Part shown: positions 2,507-43,643 of the stretch, in pieces
Layout: each line of letters opens with the position of its first letter
How positions within the stretch are numbered: position 1 is the first letter of the stretch
NCBI GenBank assembly: GCA_900554835.1
Contig: USJD01000001.1
Coordinates: 24,758 to 88,757 of the forward strand
DNA: 64,000 bases
Origin: an uncultured Prevotella sp.
GTDB lineage: Bacteria; Bacteroidota; Bacteroidia; Bacteroidales; Bacteroidaceae
Direction: 5' to 3'
Program-made: the position numbers and the translations under genes
Notes under the pieces: model-generated
The model's database searches: none
What the model saw: the letters and a program-made list of their open reading frames with translations, nothing else
Told to the model about the DNA's origin: nothing

Positions 2507-2740
2507 TTAAATACCAAAATAATATTCAGGAACATCATTCCCATCCGAATATATTTGTATAGGTACTCCATAAAATGTTCTTACTACTCCTGTGTCAGTC
2601 ATTCTATAGCAAATCTTAAAAGGATCTATACATGCAAAAGCTGCCATATTCATAAAAATCTTTTTAATAAATCCTTCTCCATATTGCCTGTTGTAAGAAA
2701 GAATATCATAAGAAATTCCTAACGTGAAATCATGTTTCAT
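2507..2740 (-). CDS. hypothetical protein (77 aa)
   Basis: ORF track; co-oriented, tightly packed in - operon. Confidence 0.55.
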   Translation of the reverse strand: MKHDFTLGISYDILSYNRQYGEGFIKKIFMNMAAFACIDPFKICYRMTDTGVVRTFYGVPIQIYSDGNDVPEYYFGI

Positions 2741-2943
2741 TTTCTCGCCACCATTAATTCATCTACGAACCCCTCTGGCATAATATCTGTATCGATATTA
2801 ATACGTGGAGCTTCACCATCTTCTGCTGGATAACAATGAATTGATATGTCCGAATAGTACTTATAACTTGCAATAGTCTCTGCATTATCAATTAGTGATT
2901 GCCCACAATACTTAATGTTCTTAATCAGGTTTTCTTTTGTCAT
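2737..2943 (-). CDS. hypothetical protein (68 aa)
   Basis: ORF track; 4-nt overlaps with both neighbours. Confidence 0.55.
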   Translation of the reverse strand: MTKENLIKNIKYCGQSLIDNAETIASYKYYSDISIHCYPAEDGEAPRINIDTDIMPEGFVDELMVARK

Positions 2944-3155
2944 ATCTTCATACCGTACCTTTCTTCAAATTCTTTCAATTCTTCCTCTGTAGGCTGAGTA
3001 TTTTCTAACCCATATATACACCCAGAATCAAAACAACATCCATCGAGGTCTTCTCTTGTCTCAACCCACGAGGGATATTCTATCCAACCATATCTACACC
3101 CTTGACAATATTTCACTATGGGATCAATGCACCGTGTAGGTTTATCATTCTTCAT
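2940..3155 (-). CDS. hypothetical Cys-rich protein (71 aa)
   Basis: ORF track; CxxC pairs; packed in operon. Confidence 0.55.
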   Translation of the reverse strand: MKNDKPTRCIDPIVKYCQGCRYGWIEYPSWVETREDLDGCCFDSGCIYGLENTQPTEEELKEFEERYGMKI

Positions 3156-3390
3156 CGTTCATTCTCCACCAATCTTTCATATCCCACCGATAACTTTCTT
3201 GAGCTTCCTCATGCATTCTACTCAGCGCATCCTTCAAGAATGCTTTAGTCTGTTCATCCCAGCCAATGCACTCCAACTGCATACGAGCATTGTCATCACA
3301 TTTACTTAAAGCATGATTTAAATTTCCAAGAAAAGAACGTGCTTTATTGTATGCTGGATAGAAATACTTATTATAATCAAATACAGTCAT
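3145..3390 (-). CDS. hypothetical protein (81 aa, start trimmed)
   Basis: ORF 3145..3432 trimmed to the ATG at 3390 (MTVFDYNKYF), which follows GGAGGG. The longer form would contain its own promoter. Confidence 0.55.
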   Translation of the reverse strand: MTVFDYNKYFYPAYNKARSFLGNLNHALSKCDDNARMQLECIGWDEQTKAFLKDALSRMHEEAQESYRWDMKDWWRMNDEE

Positions 3391-3404
3391 AACTCCCTCC
3401 AAAA

Positions 3405-3448
3405 TTAATTTTGTATTGTTATTATAACACAAAATTACCGATTGTCAA
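3405..3448 (-). promoter_or_regulatory. sigmaA-type promoter (TTGACA-16-TATAAT) followed by the 15-nt motif ACAATACAAAATTAA
   Basis: -35 at 3443-3448, -10 at 3421-3426, motif at 3405-3419, then GGAGGG and the ATG at 3390. Confidence 0.6.
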
Positions 3449-3776
3449 GATACTCTCGTAAGTTTTTACATGTCTCTTGACAAGTCTTGCCCCCATCTGC
3501 TGATATATAACCCCAACCTTTATCACATCCGATACATGGATTAGGAATATCCTTGGGAAATAGTATCCCCTTACTGAGACAATCTCTCGCCTTTTGAGAC
3601 ATTTCAATGAGCTCATCGATGAGGTGCTTTAAATCCTCGACAGAATGGCAACCATCATAATCACAGCCAATCTGCCATATAAATTCTAGCCATTCATCAG
3701 CACAGTTTGGCTCACACATATTACAACCTGTCTGTTCATCTTTCCAAAAGTTCACTTTATTTTTCTCCCTAGACAA
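3435..3776 (-). CDS. hypothetical Cys-rich protein (113 aa)
   Basis: ORF track; several CxxC/CxxxxC pairs; the alternative frame 3422..3616 was rejected. Confidence 0.6.
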   Translation of the reverse strand: MSREKNKVNFWKDEQTGCNMCEPNCADEWLEFIWQIGCDYDGCHSVEDLKHLIDELIEMSQKARDCLSKGILFPKDIPNPCIGCDKGWGYISADGGKTCQETCKNLREYLDNR

Positions 3777-4024
3777 TCAACTTCAATAATATCATTATCT
3801 AACACATCTGTTTCATAAAGTATCTTTTCAAGTGCATGAAATTCACGAAAATAATATTCAAGCTCTTCTTTAAGATTTTGTACCGCTTCTTCCTTGCTTT
3901 CTCCATAACCACGTATGTTTTCTATATCTGTAGGTGAATAAAATTCAGAAGTATCTATTAGATAACATACATGTGAACCACATTTTTCTTTTCCATCATT
4001 ATAATGTGCAATTTTCATCAACAT
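3752..4024 (-). CDS. hypothetical protein (90 aa)
   Basis: ORF track; co-oriented, packed. Confidence 0.55.
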   Translation of the reverse strand: MLMKIAHYNDGKEKCGSHVCYLIDTSEFYSPTDIENIRGYGESKEEAVQNLKEELEYYFREFHALEKILYETDVLDNDIIEVDCLGRKIK

Positions 4025-4203
4025 GACTTTTCTCCTTTCGGTATATATTCATCACACGCTGGGGTGTCTTCATAGCATAAATGCCCAAAAATAAATGTCA
4101 ACCCTTTTTCACGTTCACCTTTTGTAGGATGACAAATATCACAGCAAAGATTCCAATCTCCACCGCCTATATAATGGTCACAGGTTCCACAATACTTAGA
4201 CAT
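4018..4203 (-). CDS. hypothetical Cys-rich protein (61 aa)
   Basis: ORF track; CGTCDH..CCDIC..C pattern. Confidence 0.55.
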   Translation of the reverse strand: MSKYCGTCDHYIGGGDWNLCCDICHPTKGEREKGLTFIFGHLCYEDTPACDEYIPKGEKSC

Positions 4204-4204
4204 A

Positions 4205-4615
4205 TTACTTCTCCTTTAAAAACTTCTTCATATCAAGTCCACGAAAGTTTTCTTGCCCCTTATAAATTTCGCCTTTATATGGAGCTGATTTCCAGTTGCT
4301 CCCTTCTGAAAATTTCTTGATATAATAGTTGTTTTCACCCTCATGATATAGATTTTCAGCTTCTTTATCTGTCATATAAGCTTGAAACATGCCAACTCCG
4401 TTACAATAAAAGATGTAACCATTTAAGTTATTTTTGCACCATGCAAATCGTATTTTTCTATAAATCCAACCAAAGAAAGAAATAATCGCAACAGGAACGA
4501 GTAGCGCTGTCCAAACTAGTACTTCGTCATTCTCCTTAGATAGCAAATATACAATTGTGCAAATGACCTGCCACGCTATAATACCTATTACAGTAGAAAT
4601 AATATAATTCATCAA
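4205..4615 (-). CDS. hypothetical membrane protein (136 aa)
   Basis: ORF track; two hydrophobic N-terminal segments. Confidence 0.6.
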   Translation of the reverse strand: MMNYIISTVIGIIAWQVICTIVYLLSKENDEVLVWTALLVPVAIISFFGWIYRKIRFAWCKNNLNGYIFYCNGVGMFQAYMTDKEAENLYHEGENNYYIKKFSEGSNWKSAPYKGEIYKGQENFRGLDMKKFLKEK

Positions 4616-4933
4616 TTAAACCTCCACACCAAAGCGTTCTTTTATTTGCTTAACGGCTTCTGCTCTCATACCCATATGCTCATCTTCTAGCATATCTAGC
4701 AAATAATTTATAACATTATCACTTGCTTTCCTATTGGCTCGAATGGCTTTTTCACGCTTTTCAGGATAGAAACTGCATATAGTTTCATCACCATCACAAC
4801 TACACGCATCACATTCTTTTGTGCCATAACATACTCCATATGTGCTAAGATATGAGCTCTCTGGCATCCCAGTAAAAGCATTGAAAATGTATCTACGTTC
4901 TGATCTTTCATGATAACTACTACATTTTTCCAT
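4616..4933 (-). CDS. hypothetical Cys-rich protein (start trimmed)
   Basis: ORF 4616..4993 trimmed to MEKCSSYHE (ATG at 4933) preceded by GGAGGATAAT; this removes the overlap with 4947..5294. Confidence 0.55.
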   Translation of the reverse strand: MEKCSSYHERSERRYIFNAFTGMPESSYLSTYGVCYGTKECDACSCDGDETICSFYPEKREKAIRANRKASDNVINYLLDMLEDEHMGMRAEAVKQIKERFGVEV

Positions 4934-4946
4934 ATTATCCTCCACC

Positions 4947-5294
4947 TTAATCCATTTGATAAGGTTTATCTTCCAAGATCCAAACCTCACCATCTTGCCC
5001 TATAATATCATAAAATGTAACAAGTTCATTTAGATTTACATTAGATATTTTTGCTCTATATTGATAGCGCCCAGTAGGAATATCTTGCTCAAAATCTCTT
5101 ACAAATATAATTAAAAGAGTTAGCACAATACATGCTATCGCACAAACCGCCGCACAAATCGCATCATTATATACTGATGTCAACACAAAAAATACAATTG
5201 CTACTGCAAGTGAAATAATAACTAGCCATACATACCAAGGAGGCAATACGCTATTAGTTATCGCTGTCTGGCTTAAAATTTCAACACCACTCAT
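4947..5294 (-). CDS. hypothetical 2-TM membrane protein, paralog of 5291..5644
   Basis: ORF track; C-terminus IPTGRYQYRA..YDIIGQDGEVWILEDK matches the neighbour's VPTGRYEYQV..YDIVGQDGLIWTLEDK. Confidence 0.6.
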   Translation of the reverse strand: MSGVEILSQTAITNSVLPPWYVWLVIISLAVAIVFFVLTSVYNDAICAAVCAIACIVLTLLIIFVRDFEQDIPTGRYQYRAKISNVNLNELVTFYDIIGQDGEVWILEDKPYQMD

Positions 5295-25293: not shown

Positions 25294-25605
25294 TTACATT
25301 TCCTCCTTAATATTCATTGTTTTATCTGGCGGAATTGCATTTCCGTCTTCATCTTCGTCGCCTTCAACCCACCAAGACTCCCACATATTGTAGGTTTCGC
25401 TCAATCTCTCTACCATAAACTCTTCGCAGCAAGAGTCTTCTACATAATCTCTATATTCTCCCTCTTCCATATCCTCGGTACTGTGCCATTCAAGATAATA
25501 TTCATCAAGCATATCAAGAATTTCCTTTTCAAGACTCTTGTATGCATCATCCCACTCTATACATAATTCTCTTTCAAAACAATTTACCCAATATCTTGTT
25601 ATCAT
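25294..25605 (-). CDS. hypothetical highly acidic protein (103 aa)
   Basis: ORF track; AAGGAG RBS directly after structured unit 1. Confidence 0.55.
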   Translation of the reverse strand: MITRYWVNCFERELCIEWDDAYKSLEKEILDMLDEYYLEWHSTEDMEEGEYRDYVEDSCCEEFMVERLSETYNMWESWWVEGDEDEDGNAIPPDKTMNIKEEM

Positions 25606-25639
25606 TTAACATCACTCCTTAATATTTTTATGTTATATA

Positions 25640-25806
25640 CTCATGAACTTTGTAAGCTTCCTTTATCAGTTTCATATAATGCTGCGGAAGATGAGGACAA
25701 GGATTACGATGACCTGTGATAGCAGGTCATAGTGATCGTATGCCTCATATTTCGGCAGCATAATTGAAGTTTAGTTCCCTTGTATATAATGGCGCTTATA
25801 CCATTT
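25640..25806. ncRNA. structured RNA-like unit 1 (novel family, array 1)
   Basis: Left box TTCCTTTATCAGTTTCATATAAT; 80-nt imperfect hairpin 25681-25760 with apical GACCTG-TGATAG-CAGGTC; right box TAATTGAAG..CCCTTGTA; small hairpin. Confidence 0.6.
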
Positions 25807-25986
25807 TACGCACTCAATAATTTTGTAAGCTCTCTTTAATGGCTTCATATAATACGACAGTATCCTGAATGGATGCGCCGAGTGCCCCGTCTGATAGGAC
25901 GGGGTGATCGTATCCATCTATTCAGGACTTACTGCCGTAGCATTGAATTGAATTACCTTGTGCATATTGGTGCTTATACCAAAATG
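25807..25986. ncRNA. structured RNA-like unit 2
   Basis: Left box CTCTTTAATGGCTTCATATAAT; hairpin 25854-25942 with apical CCCCGTC-TGATAG-GACGGGG; right box TTGAATTGAATTACCTTGTG; small hairpin TTGGT..ACCAA. Confidence 0.6.
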
Positions 25987-26160
25987 TACTCTGCATTTCC
26001 GTAGATATTTCTTTAACTGTTTCATATTCTGATCCTTCTGGAATTAGGATACAGCGATCGGCAGTGGCGATAGCCCTGCGGTTAGCTGTATCTTTATTCT
26101 TATGAAGGATCATAATTGAATTGAAATACCTTGTACATTGGCAGTATCTATCTGCATTTA
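25987..26160. ncRNA. structured RNA-like unit 3
   Basis: Left box ATTTCTTTAACTGTTTCATATTC; hairpin 26030-26112 with apical GGC-GATA-GCC; right box TAATTGAATTGAAATACCTTGTA; ends 1 nt before the stop codon of 26162..27100. Confidence 0.6.
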
Positions 26161-43435: not shown

Positions 43436-43588
43436 TCATTTTGAGACATAAAAAGTCTCTTTTTGAGACATATGTAGTGTCATTTTGAGACATTCTCATT
43501 TTGAGACATTATATCTCTTTTTGACACATAAAGTATCATTTTGAGACAAGTAGTCTCTTTTTTAATATAGTCGTATCTTTTTGACACA
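43436..43588 (+). repeat. eight direct iterons, consensus TC(A/T)(T/C)TTTTGA(G/C)ACA
   Basis: Copies start at 43436, 43456, 43480, 43496, 43514, 43536, 43554 (degenerate) and 43574; spacing 16-24 bp; all in the same orientation. Confidence 0.7.
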
Positions 43589-43595
43589 AAACCTC

Positions 43596-43643
43596 TTGAC
43601 AAATTAATCTTTATATGCTATATTAGCTACAGTACAAAATTAA
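43596..43643 (+). promoter_or_regulatory. rightward sigmaA-type promoter (CTCTTGACAAAT-17-TATATT) followed by motif ACAGTACAAAATTAA
   Basis: -35 at 43596-43601, -10 at 43619-43624, motif at 43629-43643, then GGGAGG and the TTG start at 43663. Confidence 0.65.

Follow-up and report, generated by a model that had tools for sequence, protein, structure and literature searches.

Three tandem structured units fill positions 25635 to 26155 of a 64,000-nt stretch of DNA (hereafter the window) taken from an uncultured Prevotella sp. assembly (GCA_900554835.1, contig USJD01000001.1, positions 24,758 to 88,757). These units, which we call the distal array, very probably represent the three-unit half of a UG27 reverse transcriptase (RT) non-coding RNA (ncRNA) array carried by a tailed gut phage of approximately 163 kb, with each unit yielding a hairpin of complementary DNA (cDNA). 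The feature is already known. Mestre et al. (2022; PMC9226505) defined UG27, found it to be common in gut phages and predicted an ncRNA with three long stem-loops adjoining the RT, and a preprint of September 2026 (bioRxiv 10.64898/2026.09.22.753630) has described and tested the family, so that the novelty implied by the original prediction, which had been made from the DNA letters alone, did not stand. The units matched nothing in Rfam 15, whether searched at the gathering or at a permissive threshold, and a scan for tRNAs was negative; the family had gone unrecognized in that prediction because it is not in Rfam 15.

According to the text of the preprint, UG27 ncRNA units are ~149 or 167 nt long and comprise a basal hairpin, a pseudoknot, an asymmetric internal loop and a central stem, with the motifs UUYA and AUC-N7-UANAG; extra units are found in neighbouring intergenic regions, and units are gained and lost between relatives. 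The same text counts 14,118 UG27 loci and reports for five UG27 systems that the RT copies the central hairpin into single-stranded DNA (ssDNA) of 50-100 nt, with synthesis beginning at AUC, ending after UUYA, and requiring the YSDD motif of the RT as well as both accessory proteins. With the arrays described there the window locus shares an RT accompanied by a small and a large accessory open reading frame (ORF), a gut phage context, tandem units of ~167 nt on the RT strand, the basal hairpin, the pseudoknot, the asymmetric loop with UUYA and N7-UANAG, extra units in the neighbouring intergenic region, and unit gain and loss between relatives. The pseudoknot is shared as an element, and its partners may be the same in both. 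The one difference lies in the triplet at the start, AUC in the published arrays and AUG in the window units. The preprint text makes no mention of the apical UAUC loop, the pairing bias towards the cDNA sense or the mosaicism of units that we report below, and its figures may hold them; these three details, along with AUG for AUC, are possibly new.

The gene next to the proximal one of the two arrays in the window (28120-29379, minus strand) encodes a 419-aa RT with a YSDD active-site motif. It matched the PADLOC profile RT_UG27 with E=1.8e-197 and 654 bits, its residues 1-419 covering profile positions 1-420 of 420, and Pfam RVT_1 with E=1.4e-22. The second-best PADLOC profile was UG26 (E=1.7e-37), and UG17 and Drt9 were also among the secondary matches; by PADLOC the RT is thus a member of the UG27 group. 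Both UG27-specific accessory genes are present on the minus strand, between the two arrays: the small one (sORF; 27114-27584, 156 aa) matched RTas346 (cluster 346) with E=5.5e-55, and the large one (bORF; 26162-27100, 312 aa) matched RTas337 (cluster 337) with E=4.6e-108. Read along the minus strand, the operon runs from the RT through three units, the small accessory ORF and the large accessory ORF to the last three units. The distal array begins 6 nt past the stop codon of the 312-aa ORF (26162-26164) and reaches the ribosome-binding site of a 103-aa ORF (25294-25605, start at 25605), and an array stretching from a stop codon to the next ribosome-binding site, as originally proposed, is hereby confirmed on the minus strand. 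A second gap, of like size and content, lies between the 419-aa and the 156-aa ORFs.

Unit coordinates were taken from R2, a covariance model that we built with trimmed unit ends using Infernal. Its search of the 64-kb window returned exactly six units, all on the minus strand and 168-175 nt long (~172), in two arrays, the distal one and a proximal one (27602-28114) located directly 3′ of the RT gene; no seventh unit was found elsewhere in the window. As expected of UG27 units (~135-170 nt), they are tandem, intergenic and encoded on the RT strand, and they match the ~167-nt class given in the preprint text. In the distal array, unit A1u1 (25984-26155; R2 E=7e-22) has its basal hairpin at 26155-26141, CAAGG from 26133, UUCA at 26120-26117, the apical UAUC at 26072-26069 and AUG-N7-UAAAG at 26025-26011, and its pseudoknot joins the loop UAGAUA (26150-26145) with UAUCUA (26007-26002). 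A1u2 (25808-25982; E=2.6e-25) carries UUCA at 25947-25944, an apical CUAUCA at 25897-25892 and AUG-N7-UAAAG at 25848-25834, and in A1u3 (25635-25804; E=3.9e-28) the same elements lie at 25768-25765, 25722-25717 and 25675-25661. The proximal array consists of A2u1 (27946-28114; E=1.1e-29), with UUCA from 28079 and AUG-N7-UAGAG at 27985-27971, A2u2 (27772-27942; E=7e-29), with UUCA from 27907 and AUG-N7-UAAAG at 27811-27797, and A2u3 (27602-27769; E=2e-19), with UUUA at 27733-27730 and AUG-N7-UAAAG at 27641-27627.

In RNA sense, the order of elements is a small 5′ hairpin, URCAAGGUA, AUUCAAU, a long imperfect hairpin with a (C)UAUC(A) apex, UUAUAUGAAAC-N3-UAAAGAAA, and UGAGU. The boxes of the original prediction had been read on the plus strand, and all of them are present as reverse complements of these motifs: ACTCAT corresponds to UGAGU, TTTCTTTA-N3-4-GYTTCATATAA to UUAUAUGAAAC-N3-UAAAGAAA, and AATTGAAT-N5-8-TACCTTGYA to URCAAGGUA-N-AUUCAAUU. 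In pattern searches the isolated short boxes did not exceed chance, and their combination did. The three tandem units that had been seen to fill the distal gap have boundaries within ~5 nt of those given by R2; the apical loops at 25717-25722, 25892-25897 and 26068-26073 are exact, reading CUAUCA or UAUC on the minus strand; their closing helices are GACCTG/CAGGTC, CCCCGTC/GACGGGG and GGC/GCC, as had been quoted; and the small hairpin was found in every unit. Not noticed at the time were the strand, the pseudoknot, P1 and P2 as outer helices, and the RT gene at a distance of ~2 kb.

The unit scaffold is, by covariation, a conserved RNA fold. It combines the basal hairpin with two outer helices, P1 and P2, that flank a CAAGG/UGAG internal loop (C-AA-G-G opposite U-GA-G, conserved), with a pseudoknot formed by the basal-hairpin loop and the 5-6 nt after UANAG-AAA, and with an asymmetric loop, with UUCA on its 5′ side and AUG-N7-UANAG on its 3′ side, that holds a variable central hairpin of 80-100 nt ending in the UAUC loop. 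Whole units folded more stably than shuffled sequence (z=-2.95 to -7.3), and compensatory changes were evident at 16 of 26 consensus pairs within the six window units alone. We fetched 27 related viral loci with RTs 52-88% identical, built covariance models, and scored five helices (basal hairpin, P1, P2, the UUCA/UGAA contact and the pseudoknot) on a MAFFT alignment, not fitted to the structure, of 48 distinct units. Paired cells amounted to 91.0%, compared with 30-42% when the partners were slid by 1-3 columns, and the covariation score was 0.635 versus 0.21 in shuffles, none of 500 shuffles scoring as high. The suggestion of a functional structured RNA with conserved single-stranded boxes and compensatory stems, for which a covariation test had been proposed, is strongly supported by this result. 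The pseudoknot was 99.6% paired, with three to four pair types at each of its five positions, and the 4-bp basal hairpin 84.7% paired, with changes on both sides at all four pairs; the UUCA/UGAA contact is nearly invariant and hence uninformative on covariation. The internal-loop pair G29-U199 is G-U in 36 of the 48 sequences, which identifies the RNA sense (minus strand) as the strand that folds. UUYA and N7-UANAG surround the variable central stem in all six window units, and among the 82 distinct units of the clade UANAG is present in 82, UUCA or UUUA in 82, and the 7-nt spacing is fixed. The central hairpins of these 82 units all had z<-2 (median -7.6), and orthologous central hairpins show compensatory changes.

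If synthesis starts and stops as in the published systems, the six predicted ssDNAs have plus-strand sequence and lengths of 95-102 nt, and all fold as long DNA hairpins: 26023-26120 (A1u1; z=-7.1), 25846-25947 (A1u2; z=-6.6), 25673-25768 (A1u3; z=-8.4), 27983-28079 (A2u1; z=-5.9), 27809-27907 (A2u2; z=-6.3) and 27639-27733 (A2u3; z=-5.8). An apical AUC was found in the central loop of 60 of the 82 distinct units, mostly as a UAUC tetraloop whose closing pair covaries, and in the window the UAUC lies at 26072-26069, 25896-25893, 25721-25718, 28031-28028, 27857-27854 and 27687-27684. In cDNA this apex becomes GATA, a loop of the d(GNNA) type. Of 115 de-replicated central hairpins, 102 were more stable as the cDNA-sense strand under RNA parameters (p=2.5e-18; the kinship between units makes p-values here indicative only) and 97 under DNA parameters. 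G-U pairs made up 1.6% in the RNA sense versus 6.0% in the cDNA sense, and a strand-neutral fold restricted to Watson-Crick pairs left 38 single mismatches of the A-C type versus 19 of the G-U type; the commonest mismatch, C-U, becomes G-A in cDNA. The scaffold helices have the opposite bias (62 G-U versus 25 A-C cells), and GC skew is -0.13 in the hairpins and +0.27 in the genes on the same strand. Most simply, selection would act on the scaffold as RNA and, at least in part, on the central hairpin as DNA; alternatively, a weaker fold of the template may aid the RT or the release of its product.

Beyond the window, R2 matched ~270 further units in 70 related phage loci: 26 viral loci contributed 124, 43 metagenome loci 146 and Bacteroides phage BS-TP1 ~8. 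All were on the RT strand and adjoined the RT or the large accessory ORF, and the array, earlier described as looking like a deliberate operon component, has indeed its counterparts only in UG27 RT operons. Two arrays are the rule in the clade, with one to six units after the RT and one to three behind the large accessory ORF. Each array has unit subtypes of its own, which are kept across the clade (loci L001-L026) and told apart by their pseudoknot sequences: proximal units have basal loops of the AG(Y)(R)(Y)A type, and the distal array has a UAGAUA-type unit first, followed by AUAAGC-type units. The basal loop of every subtype has its matching pseudoknot partner. In BS-TP1 (L028, PQ571274.1; locus 2507-3841 and 3838-5100, minus strand), which was cultured on Bacteroides salyersiae BG8, the UG27-type RT gp79 is annotated as 'tail protein', and ~8 tandem units occupy 1.35 kb of unannotated DNA after it.

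The 4,086-nt window locus has an exact copy on a metagenome contig of 163 kb and another in an independent second sample; besides such identical copies, the nearest relatives in the metagenome scan had RTs ~88-91% identical. Over 47 inter-locus pairs the identity of the scaffold averaged 0.89 versus 0.67 in the hairpin middles, with a shuffled baseline of 0.54. In three hairpins the upper 25-45 nt have been substituted as a block in comparison with the closest relative (L001), with pairing and loop kept, and A2u3 is absent there, only the 5′ part of its basal hairpin being left. The A2u3 tip shares 96% identity with the tip of a unit from phages with ~80% RT identity (comparison set L032, L033 and L034), and A1u3 is 100% identical to a unit of L001 even though the RT genes are just 84% identical. 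Where RTs are at least 97% identical, hairpin tips are mostly identical as well. The pattern is one of mosaicism, or module exchange, and not of hypermutation; RT-driven hypermutation of the tips was rejected, given their stability at this level of RT identity and the two samples with zero differences. Among 28 related loci, four of the window tips are unique and two are common only to L001, and there was no sign in these loci of tips shuffling independently of their own units.

By homology with the published systems, the RT together with both accessory proteins would start DNA synthesis at the AU(C/G) of the 3′ box, here AUG, copy the central hairpin and stop just past UUYA (UUCA or UUUA), so that each unit would give its own short ssDNA hairpin. 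The locus would then produce six different products of ~95-102 nt with GATA-type loops. As no minus-strand terminator was found, the whole locus may be transcribed as a single polycistronic minus-strand RNA carrying both arrays; the scaffold would serve as the platform recognized by the three-protein complex, and the folded cDNA would be the functional product. The original prediction had left open whether RNA or ssDNA was the structured molecule, and this hedge proved right both ways, since in the five other systems described in the preprint text the template is RNA and the product an ssDNA hairpin.

Several points weigh against this interpretation. None of the window units has the published AUC triplet; all six read AUG (26025-26023, 25848-25846, 25675-25673, 27985-27983, 27811-27809 and 27641-27639), as do 74 of the 82 distinct clade units, the others having AUC (seven, in the L018/L019 group) or GUG (one). 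Because of this, the start site of reverse transcription is extrapolated here, and the mechanism as a whole is carried over from five other UG27 systems. Matches of the hairpins elsewhere in the 64-kb window were at chance level, the best spanning 11-16 nt with E of at least 0.2. No Pfam domain was found in either accessory protein, and neither had a PDB relative by sequence or by Foldseek on AlphaFold2 models (best E 0.87 for the large and 2.4 for the small protein), even though the models were usable, with predicted local distance difference test (pLDDT) values of 78.6 and 91.1, respectively; sequences and models give no hint of priming or effector activity. Since the hairpins lack matches in the window and the accessory proteins lack PDB relatives, nothing points to a target or an effector activity. 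As to the triplet, we treated its third letter as variation of the consensus within the clade and not as a defining feature, because AUG and AUC units fit a single covariance model and share one scaffold; the distant relatives L018/L019 carry AUC and still fit R2. In the AUG form, UG and the next AA are able to pair with UUCA across the loop.

What the products might do can be proposed only tentatively. The folded cDNAs, and not the RNAs, may be the functional molecules, forming a phage repertoire with a shared d(GATA)-type loop, stems selected in the DNA sense and tips swapped as modules, and they might act through protein binding or as decoys (e.g., for ssDNA- or hairpin-recognizing defence or repair factors) and not through complementarity. 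As described in the preprint text, the cDNAs have no complementarity to phage or host genomes (bioRxiv 10.64898/2026.09.22.753630). The bias towards the cDNA sense against the local base composition, the conserved loop and the mosaic conservation of units are compatible with such a repertoire, and none of them proves it. A role as structure-specific protein-binding DNA hairpins, used against host factors or in the ssDNA metabolism of the phage, is our best guess, held no more firmly.

Could the locus instead be a variant of a retron? In that case the units would be msr-msd-type RNAs whose branched cDNA is primed from the 2′-OH of a conserved guanosine, making the locus a multi-template retron. 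Its logic is the same, in that an RT and a structured RNA with paired ends (P1 resembles a1/a2) lead to a short hairpin ssDNA; an invariant G lies near the template start, in UANAG and UGAG; and in the preprint text a UG27 RT also matches the retron-type RT domain cd01646. However, the best retron RT profile (RT_Ec107-like) matched the window RT with E=5e-14 and 50 bits, versus 654 bits for RT_UG27, which leaves it outside the retron clade. Moreover, six tandem templates follow the RT and the large ORF in place of a single upstream ncRNA, although P1 does close the units, and two unrelated accessory proteins are required, with no branch reported. We therefore regard a retron as unlikely, and the matter bears on the mechanism and the family label, not on whether cDNA is made. 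Units of the AUG clade that act solely as RNA, for instance as processed small RNAs or protein sponges, without reverse transcription, would fit the replacement of the published AUC by AUG in 74 of the 82 distinct units, but not the rest of the evidence: the RT keeps YSDD, both accessory genes are conserved, the remainder of the box, the 7-nt spacing and UUYA are intact, and one covariance model fits AUC and AUG units alike. As such units would also not be expected to show a pairing bias of the central hairpins towards the cDNA sense, we consider this quite improbable.

Repeats acting at the level of DNA, such as iterons, a mobile repeat family, attC-like or IS200/IS605-type hairpin sites or an ssDNA origin, are suggested by units that are tandem, rich in hairpins and variable in copy number between relatives. 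The G-U pairs of the scaffold (G29-U199 in 36 of 48 sequences, and elsewhere the 62 G-U versus 25 A-C cells) would nevertheless be C-A mismatches on the other strand, a covarying pseudoknot is meaningless in duplex DNA, no unit has turned up apart from UG27 genes or in the reverse orientation, and no transposase or integrase adjoins them, so that very little speaks for this possibility. Small proteins encoded by the arrays are even harder to credit. Minus-strand ORFs of 63, 48 and 61 aa do exist at 25922-26113, 25771-25917 and 27887-28072, but they are almost certainly spurious, being not conserved: unit lengths spread evenly over the three frame classes (69, 63 and 71), a sense frame is open in just 37 of 203 distinct units, close relatives can have entirely different tips that still pair, and public gene calls on the identical contig leave the arrays empty. 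The presence of a phage RT next to repeated non-coding sequence likewise recalls a diversity-generating retroelement, in which the units would be template repeats for mutagenic retrohoming. Yet the window, covering 64 kb of the ~163-kb genome, holds no second copy of any hairpin beyond the 11-16-nt matches given above, there is no Avd-like gene, the RT is of UG27 and not of the diversity-generating clade, and the locus is unchanged in two independent samples, with tips mostly identical at RT identities of at least 97%; we give this explanation practically no chance.

Taking the locus as a UG27 array, it can be compared with other RT systems. As in retrons, short ssDNA is made in abundance by an RT from the hairpin-forming portion of a structured ncRNA whose ends are joined by an outer helix. 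Unlike retrons, UG27 belongs to another RT clade and has several tandem templates downstream of the RT and two accessory proteins that are needed; it is phage-borne, is not enriched in defence islands, and no 2′-5′ branch is known for it. With DRT2 (UG2), DRT9 (UG28; PMC12483538) and DRT10 (UG17; 10.64898/2026.04.29.721553) it shares the RT class (Class 2 UG/Abi) and a structured template ncRNA adjoining the RT. Those systems act in host defence, a single template giving rise to DNA that is concatemeric, homopolymeric or a 7-nt tandem repeat, whereas the phage-encoded UG27 uses many templates and yields discrete short hairpins. The likeness to CRISPR arrays is an analogy of layout only, a conserved 'repeat' (the scaffold) alternating with variable inserts (the tips) in numbers that vary by strain; UG27 units are ~170 nt long, are not accompanied by cas genes, have self-complementary inserts without detectable targets, and lead to a DNA product made by an RT. 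A CRISPR array proper was rejected as a candidate, as there was no Rfam CRISPR match, the variable parts are self-complementary, and no cas gene was found among the flanking ORFs scanned.

UG27 systems, which are frequent in phages of the human gut, are to our knowledge the only ones in which a bacterial virus uses an RT to turn an array of templates into a set of short hairpin DNAs, and their biochemical output has just been established. BS-TP1 growing on B. salyersiae BG8 provides a tractable phage-host pair for the study of function. Our own contribution is incremental, the discovery having already been published, and it illustrates that a genuine RT-template RNA family can be recognized from raw sequence alone.

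The window derives from a tailed phage, with terminase and portal genes on the plus strand. Between approximately 20 and 34 kb every gene lies on the minus strand, and genes for a RecJ-like exonuclease, a primase, a DnaB-like helicase and a Sak4-like annealase are located in the same minus-strand block as the RT locus. Homologues of the accessory proteins numbered 1,574 and 236, with more than 1,500 for the large one. Gene callers left both arrays unannotated on the identical metagenome contig, and a scan of the locus for promoters and terminators gave no more than expected from shuffled sequence.

The ORFs of the locus are preceded on the minus strand by a strong Shine-Dalgarno sequence (AAGGAG; 25606-25625 and 27585-27600), which is unusual for Bacteroides phages, although the sole cultured relative infects Bacteroides. 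Further along the window, at 43436-43595, ~8 copies of TC(A/T)TTTTGA(G/C)ACA are spaced by ~20-22 nt within a non-coding gap of ~1 kb at which the direction of transcription switches. These repeats resemble iterons, or else operator sites, in an origin or an early control region, and they are followed by a near-consensus promoter, TTGACA-17-TATATT, at 43597-43625.

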